Shown here one piece after another: positions 5,631 through 20,863 of a DNA stretch of 20,863 nt. The stretch is from assembly GCA_963816185.1 (NCBI GenBank), contig CAWFJJ010000002.1, forward strand, positions 1-20,863. The letters run 5' to 3'. Positions within the stretch are counted from its first letter, which is position 1. The number at the start of each line of letters is the position of its first letter. The DNA comes from Thermoanaerobaculia bacterium. Lineage in GTDB: Bacteria > Acidobacteriota > Thermoanaerobaculia > UBA5066. The position numbers and the translations under genes were made by a program. The notes under the pieces are model-generated. The model was not told the DNA's origin, did no database searches, and worked only from the letters and a program-made list of their open reading frames with translations.

Positions 5631-6077
5631 TCACCGTGAAGCCCTCCGAAGTACGTAGGTTCGAAAAACCTTATCGTGCCAGGCCTGCTTCTCGCCGTCC
5701 CAGATGACCCAGAGGAAACCAAGGTAAAGAAGCGGTCCAGAAACGAACGCCGCGAAGAGATTGCGGCCGAGTGAGCGCCAGAAGCCGATTGGGCCGCCCT
5801 CGATGCTGACGACCTTCAGACCGACGACCCTTCGACCCCACGACTGGCCTGTCGTACCGACGAGGAATGTGAAGTTCCAGAGAAACCACGCCCACACAAA
5901 TATGTTGACGGCGCTAAGTGACGGCTGTTTATTGAAGAACCCGCCTTGATTGCCGAGCATCGAGCGATCGATAACGAAGTAAGCCACGAAGGCGAGCGCC
6001 ATGAGGATTACGCCGTCACAAAAGTCCGCGACCCAGCGATCCACGAACCCCGCAAACTCCCACTGCTCCTCAGACAT
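5631..6077 (-). CDS. RDD family membrane protein (integron cassette 4)
   Basis: AGFVDRWVADFCD...GQSWGRRVVGLKVV...KQAWHDKVFRTYV matches the RDD pattern; preceded on the minus strand by GTTAGAC. Confidence 0.9.
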   Translation of the reverse strand: MSEEQWEFAGFVDRWVADFCDGVILMALAFVAYFVIDRSMLGNQGGFFNKQPSLSAVNIFVWAWFLWNFTFLVGTTGQSWGRRVVGLKVVSIEGGPIGFWRSLGRNLFAAFVSGPLLYLGFLWVIWDGEKQAWHDKVFRTYVLRRASR

Positions 6078-6087
6078 CGGTTTACCA

Positions 6088-6103
6088 GCCGTCTAACGAT
6101 ATC
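6088..6103 (-). repeat. attC site, R' part (split by the IS110 element)
   Basis: GCCGTCTAACGATATC; joining 6095-6103 to 7544-7567 reproduces 10041-10073 exactly. Confidence 0.85.
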
Positions 6104-6221
6104 GTTTCAATGAAGAGGAGAAAAGGGCTGTCCTCGCCGACGTGGTCACCGAAGAATCGGGCCACAACGATTAACGGGGTCAACCTCCGAGGAGGTGCCC
6201 CAAGCAAGGGAGGACAGCCCG

Positions 6222-7325
6222 ATGAAATCTTATGTGGGACTGGACGTTCACAGCAAGTCGAGCGTTTTCATGATTCAGAACGAGCGGGGAGAGGAGCTGG
6301 GACGAGGCGAGGTGCCGACCTCTGTGGAAGGGTTTTCCTCGTTGCGGCTACGTTTCAAGCTTCGCGCCTCGACGCTGGTGGCTCTCGAATCGGGGACGAT
6401 GGCGTTTTTTGCGGCGCGAAAGCTTAGTGAGCTGGGGCTTTCACCCGTCGTGGTGGATGCGCGAGAGGTCAGGATCAAAGCCCATCGGCCCCGGCAGAAA
6501 AGCGACACGAGAGACGCCGTTGAACTGTGCGAAGGCCTGCGGCGTGGAATCTACCGGTCGATCGTGCATGTGCCGCCGGAGAAGATCGAGCACCTTAGAA
6601 ATACCCTCTCGAGGCGCCGCCATTTCGTGCGTCTCGGGACGGCGCAGATCAACGCGGCGAAAAAGATGCTCCGGAGCGCGGGGCTCTCCGAGCTCAGCCG
6701 CCAGCATCTCGGGACCCTTCGCGCGTGGCAGCGCCTTCTTGGGGCCCTGGTTCCACATCCGCAGGTAAGGAGCTACGTCGAGCTTCACCACCGCGCCTGG
6801 CAGAGTGCCCTCGAGCAGAAGAACGCGTGCGAGAAGAGCCTCGAAAGCCAGCACGCCGCCTTCGGCGAAGACCTCGAGAGACTCAAAACCGTTCCAGGAG
6901 TCGGGGAGATCGTGGCGCTGACGGCAATCGCTGTCTTCTCAGACGCCACGCGCTTTCCGACCGCCAAGCATGCGGCGAGCTACGCGGGGCTCGTCCCGCA
7001 AACCTACCAGTCGGGCGAAACGAACCGCCAGGGCCACATCACCAGGACGGGTTCGCCGGAGCTGCGGGCCATGCTCGTGCAGGCGGCTCACACGGCCAGG
7101 CGGCAAAGCAGCCCACTGAATCCGTTTCTGAGAACTCTCACGTTGCGCCTGGGGACACGCCGCGCTGTCACCGCCGTGGCGCATCGTCTCTGTCGGGTTC
7201 TTTACGCGATGCTTCGAGACAAGACGAGCTTTGATCGATCGATGCTGAAAGCCCACGAGCCGCGCACGGCGGTAAAGGATGCCCGGATCTATCGACTGAA
7301 ACCTCAAGCGGCAAAGAGCCGCTGA
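6222..7325 (+). CDS. IS110 family transposase/recombinase (DEDD RuvC-like plus Tnp domain)
   Basis: MKSYVGLDVH, VALESG, KSDTRDA, TVPGVG, ASYAGLVP..QSG (catalytic Ser), AVAHRL; GGGAGG upstream of ATG6222. Confidence 0.96.
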   Translation: MKSYVGLDVHSKSSVFMIQNERGEELGRGEVPTSVEGFSSLRLRFKLRASTLVALESGTMAFFAARKLSELGLSPVVVDAREVRIKAHRPRQKSDTRDAVELCEGLRRGIYRSIVHVPPEKIEHLRNTLSRRRHFVRLGTAQINAAKKMLRSAGLSELSRQHLGTLRAWQRLLGALVPHPQVRSYVELHHRAWQSALEQKNACEKSLESQHAAFGEDLERLKTVPGVGEIVALTAIAVFSDATRFPTAKHAASYAGLVPQTYQSGETNRQGHITRTGSPELRAMLVQAAHTARRQSSPLNPFLRTLTLRLGTRRAVTAVAHRLCRVLYAMLRDKTSFDRSMLKAHEPRTAVKDARIYRLKPQAAKSR

Positions 7326-7378
7326 AGACGAAGAAAGAAAAAGCACGCCGCAAATCTTGCCGAGAATCGGGTGGATGA

Positions 7379-7521
7379 CCCTGCTGCTGAGCATTGGGCC
7401 GCAGAGCCCGGGATATCGTTTGGGGCGCCATCCGCTGAAGTGATACGTGGGGCTCTGACCCCGAATGGACGAGTGGCCGGCTGTTTCGTGCGGCGCAAGC
7501 AAGACATTATTCAGCGAGGGG
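7379..7521 (+). ncRNA. Candidate bridge/seek RNA of the IS1111-type element
   Basis: Outer stem CCCTGCTGCTGA/TCAGCGAGGG. Inner stem CAGAGCCC (7402-7409)/GGGCTCTG (7450-7457) encloses GATATCGTT and CCGCTGA, which match the attC flanks. RNA ends are approximate. Confidence 0.72.
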
Positions 7522-7543
7522 CTTGACAGGAATCTTCATGGGC

Positions 7544-7593
7544 AAGCTCAGCGGCGAGCGTAGCGAGGCCGCTGCAGCGCGGTGGTGGGTGGC
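7544..7593 (-). repeat. attC site, remainder (R'' box degenerate)
   Basis: AAGCTCAGCGGCGAGCGTAGCGAGGCCGCTGCAGCGCGGTGGTGGGTGGC, homologous to the other attC copies. Confidence 0.8.
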
Positions 7594-7613
7594 GCTCCTC
7601 CTGGGACGCGGGA

Positions 7614-8556
7614 CTACGTCGCAGGGCGGTACTCGCTTCGGCGGTTTCGCCGACGTGCCATTTCGCTGGAGTAGCGGATACCGAGGAGAGAGGCGTGGTC
7701 CGTGCCCAGGATGAAAGGGGCGTTGTGCCCGTGGGCCGTGCGTCGACCACGAGGAGGTCGGCCATGAGACCTTCGATTTCGGGCTTCGTGATGACCACGT
7801 CACCGAGGAGATGGCCGAGCGCCCACCCGACGCCGTAACCGAGGGATGGAGGGATGGAAACGATCGGACGAACCCGGCCGATGGCGCGTCCAATGGTCTC
7901 AACGAGAGAGCGGTAAGTGAAGGTTTCTGGCCCAATGGCGTTGATGACGGTGCTGTCGACCCCAGCGCCCTGCGTTACGGCAAGGGAGGCAAGGTCGTCT
8001 ACGAAGATGGGCTGGAGCCGGTACTGACCGCTGCCGAACACACCGAAGACGGGAAAACGGCGCAGAAGCCACGCGATGTTGTTGATGAGGATGTCCTGCT
8101 CGCCGAATAGGACCGTGGGGCGCAGGATCGCGTAAGAGAGGCCGGACTCGCAAGGGCGCGCTCCAGGACGGCCTTGCCGTGAAAGTACTCGAGCCGCGAA
8201 CTCTCGGATGGATTCGTGATGCTAACGTGCACGACCCGTTGAACACCTGCCTCCTTCGCGGCCCGGAATAATGTCAGGGTGTTTTCAACGGCGACGGAAT
8301 GCCGAAACTCAGGCGCATTGAAGCGAACCCAGTACGTGTTGTAGAGCACGGTGGCGTCTTTCAGGGAGTCGACGAGGCGCTCAGGTCGATCGAAGTTGAA
8401 GGGATGAGCCTCAATGCGACCCTGGAGAGGACCCGGGCGACTGAGGGAGTTGGTGATGGTTCGGACCCGCACGCCGGTCTCGAGTAGGCGCGACGCGATG
8501 TAGCTGCCGGAATAGCCGAATGCGCCGGTTACGACGTGAAGAGGTGCGTCCGGCAT
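7614..8556 (-). pseudogene. NAD(P)-binding epimerase/atypical SDR (NDUFA9-like), frameshifted (cassette 3)
   Basis: VTGAFGYSG Rossmann motif, YFHGK, and LQPIFVDDLA...AIGPETFTY in another frame; likely true tail LGIRYSSEMARR...* ends at 7614. Frameshifts near 8110-8150 and 7710 may be sequencing errors. Confidence 0.8.
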
Positions 8557-10033: not shown

Positions 10034-10073
10034 GTCACCTAACGATATCAAGCTCAGCGGCGAGCGTAGCGAG
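10034..10073 (-). repeat. Partial attC site (other arm disrupted)
   Basis: GTCACCTAACGATATCAAGCTCAGCGGCGAGCGTAGCGAG, then homology stops. A TCCGCTGCAAG remnant lies ~40 bp further on without a GTT box. Confidence 0.8.
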
Positions 10074-10205
10074 ATGGGATGAGAAGGCCGGTGTCCCCGG
10101 CGCAGTCGGAAAATCCGCTGCAAGGACATTGCGGGCTCGAGGCCCAGAAGGGAGACCGGCCGTGAGGAAGCGTAGCACCGTGACAGGCGGAACCTGTAGG
10201 AGGGT

Positions 10206-10299
10206 ATAGGGGCGCAATGGGAATTGCCGGGGCTGTGGCGCGTAGAGGCGCTGGTCGCCGAGCGCCAGGACGGGCCGCAATTCCCATTGCCGCTCTACA
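10206..10299. repeat. GTAG-type REP cluster (inverted pair plus a second GTAG palindrome)
   Basis: ATAGGGGCGCAATGGGAATTGCCGGGGCTG (10206-10235), inverted copy at 10277-10299, and GTAGAGGCGCT...AGCGCC at 10242-10266. Confidence 0.75.
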
Positions 10300-10830
10300 G
10301 GATCGGTCAGTTCTTGGCGCTTCCACCGGCTTCAGGTCGAACTTCCCACTCGAGACCACGAAGATGATGCAGTCGCTGGCAGCGTCGCACTTCGTCACGT
10401 GCCTCACGCCGTGGGGCTGGTACTCGTATCAGCCGGGCGGGAGCTTTATCTCCGGCCCGCTCTCCGTCGCCGCGATCATCGTCCCCGAGATGACTGCGAT
10501 GCGCATGTCCGACGAGTGCATGTGGAGCCCGGCGTTGAAGCCAGCCTTGAATTTGTGAAAGGCGCCATGAGGCCCTTTGGCCGGATCGCCCCAGACCACC
10601 GCCATCGCTACGTCGCCGTTGGCCGGGTTCGGGACCCATTTCAGCTCGTCGTGAGTCATGGTCACGAGCGTGGCGGGCTTGGCGGTGGGATTCGCCTTCT
10701 CCTTGACCGTCGGGCGTGTGCCTCTCGCCTCCGCCCCCATTGGAGCTCCGGCGAGGAGAAGGACCGGGAGAACGGCGATTTGAATCGCCCCGGCATTTCC
10801 GGAGGCTCCAACACTTGAGAGGATGGAGCC

Positions 10831-12125
<1,295 letters not shown>

Positions 12126-12362
12126 TGACGACCTCCTCAAGGGACACGTTGAAGCCTATCGCGCGCGTGAAAGAATTCAATCCGACGCGGTGTCTTCCGT
12201 GGGTCGCCTCGCCCCCCACCTCCTCGACGAGGATATAGAGCTCTCCGACGAATGCCGCTCGTCGATTGAGAGGTATCCTCGGGCTGCTGATTGAACCGCA
12301 CCAACACCAGCGTCGCGCGAGAGCTAGTCCCGGGCTGACTAACCCGCCTCCCGCCAAGCACT

Positions 12363-16356: not shown

Positions 16357-16576
16357 GCTGATCACGGGCAGATGGTCAAATCGAGCCGGTTCGCCCGCCG
16401 CCGTCTGGTTTCCAGCGCTCGGTAGTCCCGGACAACCGCGCTCTGAGCCATTAACTCGGGGATCCTTCAGGGAAAGGGTCGATTACTCGAACCTAAATCG
16501 CCGTCCGGACAGAGAAGTCCGTTTAAGGGTCGGGAATGAGCCTGAAACCGGGGACGTGACTCCTGGCTCTATCCGC

Positions 16577-16688
16577 CACAGGCCCCCGGCAATTCCCATT
16601 GCGCCCCTACAGCCGCACCGAAAAAGATGCAGAATGGCCGCGGTTTCACGCTTCACAGCCCCCCGGCAATTCCCATTGCGCCCCTACA
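16577..16688 (-). repeat. Two direct 35-bp GTAG-type REP copies between convergent genes
   Basis: CACAG(G/C)CCCCCGGCAATTCCCATTGCGCCCCTACA at 16577-16611 and 16654-16688. Confidence 0.8.
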
Positions 16689-16695
16689 ACGCCCG

Positions 16696-17172
16696 TCAGA
16701 ATCGTGTCCGGACCTGCTCCCTTATGAAGGAACGGCTCCCGTTGGGGACATGTAGTTCGTCGCAGGCTTCCGCCCACGTGAAGCCTTGAAGCACGAACCT
16801 CACGAGACGTCCTGCCGTCGGCGGGAGCGATCTGGCCCCCAAACGCGCCTCGGCCGCCGATAGGCCGGTGTCACGTCGGGCTGTCGGCGCTAAGCCCGCG
16901 AGTGACTCTATGGGCTCGAGGCGCGTCGCGTAATACCACTTCCTGTTCTTCGTTCGTAGGAATCGCCCCACGAGCGCCGCAACGAGGCGGTCACCTGGAG
17001 GGAACTCCCGTAGGAGGCCGTGCCGTTGGAGGAGCCACACCACGACGTCTTGGAGCAAGTCATCCCGGCACGGCCCGTGGAATCCCTTCCGTCGCAGCGC
17101 CTTATCGACGGCCGCGATGAGGGTAGCGCCGACCTCTTCGGAAACAGGACGCCTGCGCACGGCGTTAGCCAC
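16696..17172 (-). CDS. Divergent ECF-type sigma70 factor-like protein
   Basis: Region 2-like RDDLLQDVVVWL and region 4-like SLPP...GFTWAEACDELHVPNGS; 158 aa. Confidence 0.6.
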   Translation of the reverse strand: MANAVRRRPVSEEVGATLIAAVDKALRRKGFHGPCRDDLLQDVVVWLLQRHGLLREFPPGDRLVAALVGRFLRTKNRKWYYATRLEPIESLAGLAPTARRDTGLSAAEARLGARSLPPTAGRLVRFVLQGFTWAEACDELHVPNGSRSFIREQVRTRF

Positions 17173-20699: not shown

Positions 20700-20712
20700 T
20701 TTCCCCACGGCC

Positions 20713-20744
20713 TGTAGGGGCACAATGGGAATTGTCGGGGGCTG
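20713..20744 (+). repeat. GTAG-type REP copy
   Basis: TGTAGGGGCACAATGGGAATTGTCGGGGGCTG, 13 bp after a stop codon. Confidence 0.75.
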
Positions 20745-20863
20745 GTGCGCACGGACCAGAAGTCGGCCGTGGTTCGCGTGCCCGCGGTGCAGGCCCTGGC
20801 CCCATTCCATCTGGGGTGGCACTCTTCAGCGTAACCGGACGTGTGCCGCGCAACCGATTCCAC

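Follow-up and report, generated by a model that had tools for sequence, protein, structure and literature searches.

The 20,863-nt stretch analysed here (the window; contig CAWFJJ010000002.1 of a Thermoanaerobaculia bacterium) carries at positions 6104-7543 a 1440-bp insertion sequence (IS) of the IS110 family, located on the + strand and showing an IS1111-type organisation. It interrupts a repeat resembling attC, the recombination site of integron cassettes. When its left flank (6095-6103, AACGATATC) is joined to 7544-7567, the result is identical at all 33 nt to 10041-10073 of the same window, so that 6104-7543 is an insertion without target duplication. This exact split had already been noticed in a first annotation made from the letters and their open reading frames (ORFs) only, hereafter the sequence-only reading. 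The boundary of the element is ambiguous by one C only (6103/7543), which behaves like a shared core base. Across the insertion point, marked by a slash here and below, the target reads CCTAACGATATC/AAGCTCAGCGGC. The features of the locus are the following:

6091-6103, - strand: R'-side part of the split attC-like site, GATATC and then GTTAGAC (GTTRRRY box)
6104-6116, + strand: left end of the element, with the 6-nt terminal extension GTTTCA (6104-6109) followed by the subterminal inverted repeat ATGAAGA (6110-6116)
6125-6220, + strand: leader structure, whose 11-bp stem (6125-6135 with 6210-6220) buries the Shine-Dalgarno sequence GGGAGGA
6222-7325, + strand: transposase/recombinase of 367 amino acids, with a RuvC-like DEDD domain and a Tnp domain
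7371-7488, + strand: predicted two-loop bridge/seekRNA core, matched by a covariance model
7523-7543, + strand: right end of the element, with TTGACA (7523-7528), the subterminal inverted repeat TCTTCAT (7533-7539) and the 4-nt terminal extension GGGC
7544-7590, - strand: the other part (47 nt) of the split attC-like site, including a degenerate R'' box (7584-7590)
10034-10073, - strand: uninterrupted target copy, ACCTAACGATATC/AAGCTCAGCGG..., in a long-centre attC variant

The transposase gene starts at ATG 6222, 7 nt past GGGAGGA. Its product matches the Pfam families PF01548 (E 9.1e-14) and PF02371 (E 5.3e-24) and the NCBIfam model NF033542, 'IS110 family RNA-guided transposase' (226 bits, cut-off 140). 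The catalytic residues D8, E56, D95, D98 and S264 are found in the motifs VGLDVHS, ALESG, KSDTRDA and GLVPQTYQSG; D8, D95, D98 and S264 are invariant and E56 nearly invariant among 20 relatives. Alignments of the C-terminal domain with the solved recombinases of IS621 and ISCro4 (E 2.2e-8 and 6.7e-9, respectively) put S264 on their catalytic ESG serine; the N-terminal residues align only weakly to IS621. The IS1111 group has been described as carrying the C-terminal motif GL-P----S(t)G in transposases of 330-350 amino acids (PMC11187229). GLVPQTYQSG fits this motif, and the 367 amino acids exceed this range, most full-length relatives having 361-372. The non-coding region downstream of the gene is long (218 nt, 7326-7543) compared with that upstream (118 nt, 6104-6221). 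The Pfam and NF033542 matches, together with the ends, confirm the assignment made in the sequence-only reading to an IS1111-type element with a DEDD/Ser recombinase and a long downstream non-coding region.

The genome to which the window belongs (5.09 Mb in 30 contigs) contains six full-length copies, 99-100% identical, and one 454-bp 5' fragment. The left flank CTAA(C/G)GATATC/ is present at all six full copies and at the 5' fragment, and the right flank is AAGCTCAGCGGC at 6/6 full copies; past AAGCTCAGCGGC, the flank of one copy diverges entirely. The other full copies differ from that of the window by 4-12 substitutions; the reading frames are intact and the guide segments described below are identical in 6/6. 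Since six full copies, all at one site, differ by 4-12 substitutions, the element is very probably active or recently active. In relatives, the subterminal inverted repeats reach up to 11 bp (ATGAAGACGGG/CCCGTCTTCAT). At one related locus (L012), GAGTTCA is present at the left end and again as the right flank, making a 7-bp direct repeat; the left end of this copy is 1 nt longer than that of relatives, which may reflect a slipped or aberrant crossover.

The attC-like repeat occupied by the element is an imperfect 60-bp palindrome with RYYYAAC/GTTRRRY ends (e.g., GCCTAAC ... GTTAGGC) and a centre of variable length. Single-strand DNA folds pair GCCTAAC with GTTAGGC (-16 to -22 kcal/mol). Four attC-like sites, spaced by 0.6-1.1 kb, lie between - strand ORFs in the window, Pfam supports three of the cassette ORFs (RDD, epimerase-like and DUF2071), and further contigs of the genome carry dispersed attC-like clusters. 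The next cassette ORF (5631-6077, RDD family, - strand) has its ATG 13 nt beyond the GTTAGAC box, and the cassette (-) strand of the split site ends with ...GCCGCTGAGCTT/GATATC-GTTAGAC. On the cassette strand, the distance from the element to the R' box is therefore 6 nt, and the element runs antisense to the cassettes. No integron integrase above the cut-off was found in the genome (TIGR02249, best score 74.1 bits against 265; assembly 94.9% complete), so that the attC arrays are either clusters without an integrase or arrays whose integrase gene was left unassembled.

Unoccupied targets are present in the same genome, the 18-mer GATATCAAGCTCAGCGGC occurring twice exactly and six times with at most one mismatch. 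The shorter TCAGCGGCGAGCG has 74 genome matches with at most one mismatch, mostly chance ones inside genes of this G+C-rich genome, and such matches were taken as sites only if prefixed by CTAAC. In the window, AACGATATC with at most one mismatch occurs six times, compared with 2.26 expected, and 2/100 shuffles reach 6. We considered the 117-bp stretch 10074-10190 as a second inserted element and rejected it, since it corresponds to the centre of the long-centre attC variant: this central insert is common to three other sites of the genome (87-96% identity), two of which carry the element. In two soil sequencing runs (X17 and X19), uninterrupted attC right halves (corresponding to 7543-7581) are preceded by CCTAACGATAT at a summed contig depth of 141-214; this high depth indicates that the attC family is abundant outside of the window's own genome.

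Relatives of the element were collected for a comparative analysis. Seven loci in soil metagenome-assembled genomes (MAGs) of Thermoanaerobaculia/Acidobacteriota encode proteins that are 86-95% identical to the transposase. In a sample of the phylum, 4/401 genomes match at E <= 1e-40, including that of the window and one flagged as unpublished. From a large protein collection, 8000 candidates were scored, of which 1078 are relatives at E <= 1e-20; these are mostly about 58% identical, about 366 amino acids long and located on short soil contigs. A metagenome scan gave 80 loci, 56 of which have both ends and at least 10 nt of flank; two of these (L068 and L098) were removed because their right ends looked wrong. 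The final set comprises 54 distinct element/flank sets, i.e., the window and 53 relatives, which range from 83-92% DNA identity down to about 55% protein identity and occupy many unrelated targets, some of them palindromic (e.g., CAACTTGCCCC/GGGGCAAGTTG). Fifty of the 54 sets served as alignment rows; the RNA regions of the four omitted ones (L016, L049, L051 and L054) resemble those of kept rows.

RNAalifold analysis of the 50 rows revealed four helix regions in the downstream non-coding region, which the pair count divides into five helices. They delimit two loops, one matching the target and the other a candidate for matching the ends of the element (all on the + strand):

7379-7425: target-binding loop, closed by P1, with the small hairpin P2 between its two guides
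7379-7383 with 7421-7425: helix P1, compensatory change from C-G to U-A in 18/50 rows
7383-7394: right-target guide GCUGCUGAGCAU, complementary to right flank +12 to +1 (top strand)
7397-7399 with 7406-7408: helix P2, compensatory change from G-C to A-U in 16/50 rows; by eye, extendable by G7396-C7409
7412-7417: left-target guide GAUAUC, same sense as the left flank (-6 to -1), thus pairing with the bottom strand
7418-7421: GUUU, a handshake-like extension in the same sense as bases 1-4 of the element
7431-7480: putative donor-binding loop, closed by P4, with hairpin P3 inside
7431-7432 and 7435-7437 with 7474-7476 and 7479-7480: helix P4, compensatory change from U-A to C-G in 10/50 rows
7438-7446: candidate right-donor guide AAGUGAUAC, complementary to left-end bases 9 to 1, with mismatches fixed at bases 3 and 7
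7448-7453 with 7457-7463: helix P3, compensatory change from A-U to G-C in 17/50 rows
7465-7473: candidate left-donor guide AUGGAC and then GAG (7471-7473), same sense as the right-end ATGGGC

In these helices, 97.6% of 998 cells can pair, compared with 93.6 +/- 0.3% after shuffling (0/500 shuffles reach the observed value), and 65 cells changed on both sides against 20.4 expected (again 0/500); slid controls gave 31.6-51.0% pairing. The covariance model, which includes the window sequence itself, has six hits in the 5.09-Mb genome, one per full copy. Single-sequence folds of the non-coding region gave no signal compared with shuffles (z +0.21, -1.57 and +0.27) and were consequently left out of the structure model. 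No Rfam family was detected over the region at the gathering threshold, and a search of 6050-7620 at E up to 5 gave two chance-level hits only, both within the gene.

Evidence for a guide function comes from the target-binding loop, whose two guide segments covary with both strands of the target. Because a 1-nt gap and a 2-nt shift of register between clades obscure the MAFFT columns of the right guide, this guide was scored by per-sequence matching against permuted flanks and by right-aligned counts. The reverse complement of the right flank has a mean longest exact match of 6.74 nt with the 7374-7400 region over the 54 sets, compared with 4.05 nt for permuted flanks (300 permutations among elements, maximum 4.5). 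In the clade inserted at attC (eight distinct sets), flank bases +1 to +12 pair with 7394 to 7383 in 7, 7, 8, 7 (plus one G.T), 8, 8, 8, 8, 8, 8 (all G.T), 8 and 8 of the eight, the six copies of the window's own genome having G.U at +10 and an A.A mismatch at +2. Within this clade, the right guide covaries with flank bases +1, +2 and +4: at 7386-7394, flank AAGCTCAGC goes with guide GCUGAGCUU, GAGTTCAGC with GCUGAACUC, GCGCTCAGC with GCUGAGCGC and GCGTTCAGC with GCUGAACGC.

The left guide follows its flank in the same sense. Bases 7412-7417 are identical to flank bases -6 to -1 in 38, 36, 43 (of 49), 43, 45 and 48 of the 50 rows and complementary in 1-5. Two relatives (L014 and L017) are diagnostic, since their flank GATACC goes with a guide GAUACC, whereas a reverse-complement reading predicts GGTATC. 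For the left flank plus left end, the mean longest match with the 7404-7426 region is 7.33 nt over the 54 sets and 4.38 nt after permutation (maximum 5.02). The following GUUU is identical to element bases 1-4 in 49, 46, 24 and 41 of 50 rows, so that 7412-7421 spells the left junction; both sides of this extension are nearly invariant, which makes it a match and not a covariation. At its third base, 22 further rows have G where the top strand has A (G22/A16/T9/C3 against A38/T10/C2), and these would pair with the bottom strand as G.T, as judged by eye and not by a scripted count. Taken with the covariation on both strands, the comparative data argue firmly that segments of the 3' non-coding region specify the attC-like target. 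The sequence-only reading had placed a target-specifying region here and had proposed GAUAUC as a guide; both points stand, with 7412-7417 now inside the target-binding loop.

The putative donor-binding loop shares the design of the target-binding loop, and its complementarity to the element ends follows a clear pattern. The candidate right-donor guide (7438-7446) is complementary to left-end bases 1-9 in 44, 42, 5, 41, 50, 38, 1, 48 and 33 of 50 rows, and left-end base 6 covaries with it (mutual information, MI, 0.47). The candidate left-donor guide is identical to right-end bases -6 to -3 in 50, 50, 49 and 50 rows, to base -2 in 16 and to base -1 in 45 of 50, and right-end base -4 covaries as G/A (MI 0.86). 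The two bases that follow (7471-7472) have the same sense as the right flank (+1 in 42/50 and +2 in 44/50, MI 0.75), so that 7465-7472 is similar to the right junction; at 7473, agreement with flank base +3 is inconsistent (17/50). Separately, nearly all relatives have mismatches to the element ends at donor positions 7444, 7469 and 7440; of these, 7444 varies along with left-end base 3 (identical in 37/50, complementary in 5/50), and the right-end -2 mismatch also covaries.

Altogether, we consider it highly probable that this IS110-family, IS1111-type element encodes a DEDD/Ser recombinase guided by a two-loop RNA from its 3' non-coding region. In each loop, a closing stem would be followed by a 5' strand that complements the 'right' DNA half on its top strand, a hairpin and a 3' strand with the same sense as the 'left' half. 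Loop 1 would read the target, 7383-7394 pairing with right flank +12 to +1 and 7412-7417 with the bottom strand of left flank -6 to -1, and its left guide would extend into the 4 nt that match the left end of the element. Loop 2 would read the element ends, 7438-7446 pairing with left-end bases 1-9 and 7465-7470 matching the right end, and its 3' strand would extend into 2 nt that match the right flank. Because both 3' strands run into the right half of the other DNA, the RNA appears to spell the left (7412-7421) and right (7465-7472) junctions. Such strands would fit the state after strand exchange during insertion, as well as recognition of the integrated copy for excision; the authors of the seekRNA study describe excision as requiring correct flanks (PMC11187229). 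The last left-flank base and the last element base would act as a one-base core, and by eye they appear to co-vary (C/C, T/T; exceptions L037 and L096). In the attC clade, the guides would be set to the host's 60-bp attC-like repeat. Circularisation would join TTGACA (7523-7528), the 15 nt of the right end, GT and TTCAAT (6106-6111) into a putative promoter with a candidate -35 box (TTGACA), a candidate -10 box (TTCAAT) and a 17-nt spacer, by analogy with the junction promoters described for the family. This promoter would drive the transposase gene and, via read-through, the guide RNA. TTGACN sits 15-17 nt from the right end in 46/54 relatives. The anatomy, the copy number and the covariation of guides with flanks and within the paired stems are observed here; we infer production of the RNA, its binding to the protein and its role in directing recombination, as well as the promoter and the order in which the strands are exchanged.

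Several observations weigh against this interpretation. The single-sequence fold is no stabler than shuffles (z +0.21 and +0.27) and differs from the comparative structure. The guide of the window's own genome has the A.A mismatch at flank +2 in 6/6 copies. In the donor loop, mismatches are fixed at left-end bases 3 and 7 and at right-end base -2, most positions are invariant, and real covariation is found at three only (left-end 6, right-end -4 and flank +2). In distant relatives, the element ends were defined from motifs (ATGAAG minus 6 nt; CTTCAT plus 4 nt) and not from empty sites, and the shuffle controls overstate significance because the relatives share ancestry. The sole run firmly labelled as RNA (X20) consists of a relative's assembled contigs that cover 7280-7392 and 7365-7495 only; such contigs cannot reveal transcription, RNA ends or strand and are a weak hint only. 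All four runs were examined as contigs, X17-X19 being probably DNA by their own labels, and the parts left uncovered carry no weight.

An improbable alternative is that the 3' non-coding region is mainly regulatory (a terminator, an mRNA stabiliser or an antisense target) in an element that is now immobile. A regulatory role is clear for the leader at the left end: the fold of 6104-6240 reaches -61.7 kcal/mol (z -5.55), which none of 200 shuffles equals, and the leader is likely to restrict the translation of read-through transcripts. As judged by eye, the arms stay paired in relatives with different letters (GGGTTGCCCTC...GAGGGCAACCC). Against this alternative, the loops of the downstream region are conserved and their guide bases change according to the target, a pattern not required of a terminator, and immobility fits poorly with six copies that have intact frames and 4-12 differences only.

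Still less probable is the model put forward in the sequence-only reading, with one loop closed by CAGAGCCC (7402-7409) and GGGCTCTG (7450-7457), in which GAUAUCGUU (left flank) and CCGCUGA (right flank +5 to +11) would pair with the attC top strand. All of its strings are found where they were placed, including GATATCGTT at 7412-7420, TGG-GGCG-CCA at 7421-7430 and CCGCTGA at 7432-7438; both proposed guides are exact reverse complements of the flanks in the window, the exact 9-mer GATATCGTT is unlikely to occur by chance in a 218-nt non-coding region, and the single-sequence minimum-energy fold includes the stem. Comparison of the relatives gives this stem no support: 69.0% of its cells pair, as in shuffles (276/500 reach this value), and it shows 5 double changes against 11.5 expected. 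Where 7408 changes from C to U, the proposed stem partner remains G, whereas the hairpin partner 7397 goes from G to A. Covariation of 7410-7447 with the flanks, which that reading had suggested looking for in homologues, was found for 7412-7417 in the same sense as the left flank and not as its complement; the segment had been misread as a reverse complement because the insertion created the palindrome AACGATATCGTT.

CCGCUGA found no support as the right-flank guide. It mostly corresponds to the 5' arm of P4 (7431-7437 with 7474-7480), a stem kept in 50/50 relatives, and its sequence changes in relatives with other targets; both CCGCUGA and its matching flank are invariant in the attC clade, where covariation is uninformative. 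The flank TCAGCGG is already paired by 7383-7390, part of the guide 7383-7394 that had been overlooked. The match itself is unremarkable, since the 7-mer GCTGAGC (7386-7392) and six 6-mers are also shared between the 218-nt region and the 46-nt target. On these comparisons, the structural role explains CCGCUGA without a guide role.

attC sites are structured, and integron integrases recognise them by their structure. It is nevertheless most improbable of all that recognition of the folded or conserved attC needs only the protein, the non-coding matches being by-products (captured target fragments or end mimicry), even if the right end of the element is somewhat target-like (CAAGC at 7496-7500 and TCAGCG at 7511-7516), as relatives with 55-64% identical proteins occupy very different sequences with both guide segments changing accordingly, single-base flank changes are mirrored in the guides within the attC clade, and published experiments found the RNA to be essential in this family (PMC11187229).

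An RNA-guided mechanism is already described for related elements (ISKpn4, ISPst6 and ISPa25), of which the present element is a new and distant example from soil Acidobacteriota. The literature used in the sequence-only reading (guide RNAs of IS110/IS1111 elements, encoded downstream in IS1111, some of them targeting attC) was checked and holds. IS1111 elements targeting attC have been described since 2008-2009, and in 2024 seekRNAs that match attC on both strands were reported to co-purify with the ISKpn4 and ISPst6 transposases, with IS1111 seekRNAs having their bottom-strand match 3' of the top-strand one (PMC11187229). For 93% of IS1111 elements, a bridge RNA has been predicted within the right end (PMC11208160). 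The elements of the IS1111-attC group have their insertion point close to the R'' (5') end of attC and run antisense to the cassettes (PMC3001079), and their printed targets read TTGAA/CGAATTGTTAG in element orientation (review PMC13604230, Table 1), which together place the published elements 6 nt from R''.

The element of the window resembles the IS1111-attC group (ISPa21, ISKpn4, ISPst6 and ISPa25), as described in these sources, by its fixed attC position and orientation, antisense and 6 nt from an R box, and by a guide RNA, here a predicted one, encoded downstream of the transposase gene, with the top-strand match (here 7383-7394) 5' of the bottom-strand match (here 7412-7417). In contrast to this group, found near the R'' end, it is located near the R' end, with the R box on its left and not on its right, assuming that the printed 'top' strand follows the orientation of the element. 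The host and the host's attC family also differ (here MAGs of soil Acidobacteriota/Thermoanaerobaculia), and the protein has 367 amino acids here. Among at least 5000 matching plasmid records, none reached 60% identity to the transposase, the highest identity being 32% among the matches listed (30, spread down the ranking); the IS5075 transposase is 24.6% identical over residues 5-338. attC targeting would likely have arisen here independently of the IS1111-attC group, the plasmid matches being indirect evidence only.

Like the IS621 bridge RNA, the RNA proposed here would be bispecific, with target and donor loops that each read both strands (PMC11208160; PMC11208158). A core base shared at the crossover and handshake bases that pair with the other DNA after exchange would also be common to both systems, which have a DEDD/Ser recombinase. 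The IS621 RNA is encoded upstream and has simple internal loops; the RNA proposed here has a downstream location, a reversed order of guides and an extra hairpin in each loop (three-way junction). In IS621 the handshake bases come after the right guides, and their pairing partner is the top strand (PMC11208158). The extensions seen here come after the left guides, and what they match is the bottom-strand partner of the right half of the other DNA. Such a mirror image of the handshake may be due to the reversed guide order or to exchange of the bottom strand first, or it may serve to recognise the integrated copy for excision.

The series of relatives also recalls ISEc11 and ISXne4, close relatives described as keeping the RNA scaffold and exchanging guide bases for a new target (PMC11187229). 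Our series is much larger (54 element/flank sets and many targets) and comprises at least two lineages at two positions of one attC type. Besides the attC clade, L040 and L098 (58% and 56% protein identity, respectively) form a second lineage with the left flank ...CAGCGGCGAGCGCAGC/, the centre of the same attC type. Their left guide (CGAAGC or CGCAGC, then GUUU) matches this attC-centre position; their right end could not be located reliably. A wider reading, which we put forward only tentatively, is that attC targeting evolved independently of the clinical IS1111-attC group, by re-setting of the guides in a large soil clade of IS1111-type elements, at least twice (6 nt from R', and at the attC centre in L040/L098), with an RNA that spells both junctions as the mirror image of the IS621 handshake. 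If so, either the bottom strand would be exchanged first or the RNA would be built to read the integrated copy for excision.

The 54 element/flank pairs on one scaffold, in which single-base guide changes track single-base target changes, form a data set that should be useful for deriving the programming rules of IS1111-type recombinases, which are less understood than IS621; the general picture of how such elements work stays unchanged. The data also suggest that the attC-like arrays of uncultured soil Acidobacteriota are colonised by RNA-guided elements. As the element splits the site between L' and R', it should block cassette excision there, an effect also suspected for ISPa21 in clinical integrons (PMC11616780).

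Other features were detected elsewhere in the window. An IS3-family element (10781-12094, + strand) contains an ORF with an HTH_Tnp_1 domain (10831-11076), an ORF with an rve domain (11424-12128) and an ALIL frameshift pseudoknot (11108-11224, 107 bits), and about nine copies of it, about 86% identical, are present in the genome. Both strands carry a palindromic repeat whose core is CAATTCCCATTGCGCCCCTACA, resembling repetitive extragenic palindromes (REP) or miniature inverted-repeat transposable elements (MITE), at 10202-10247, 16569-16614, 16654-16699 and 20712-20747. Finally, 680-2113 contains three direct repeats with a spacing of exactly 701 bp and about 75% identity over about 31 nt, which point to an ancient tandem triplication of an ORF; next to them, ORF 17-799 encodes a phage terminase RNaseH-like domain.

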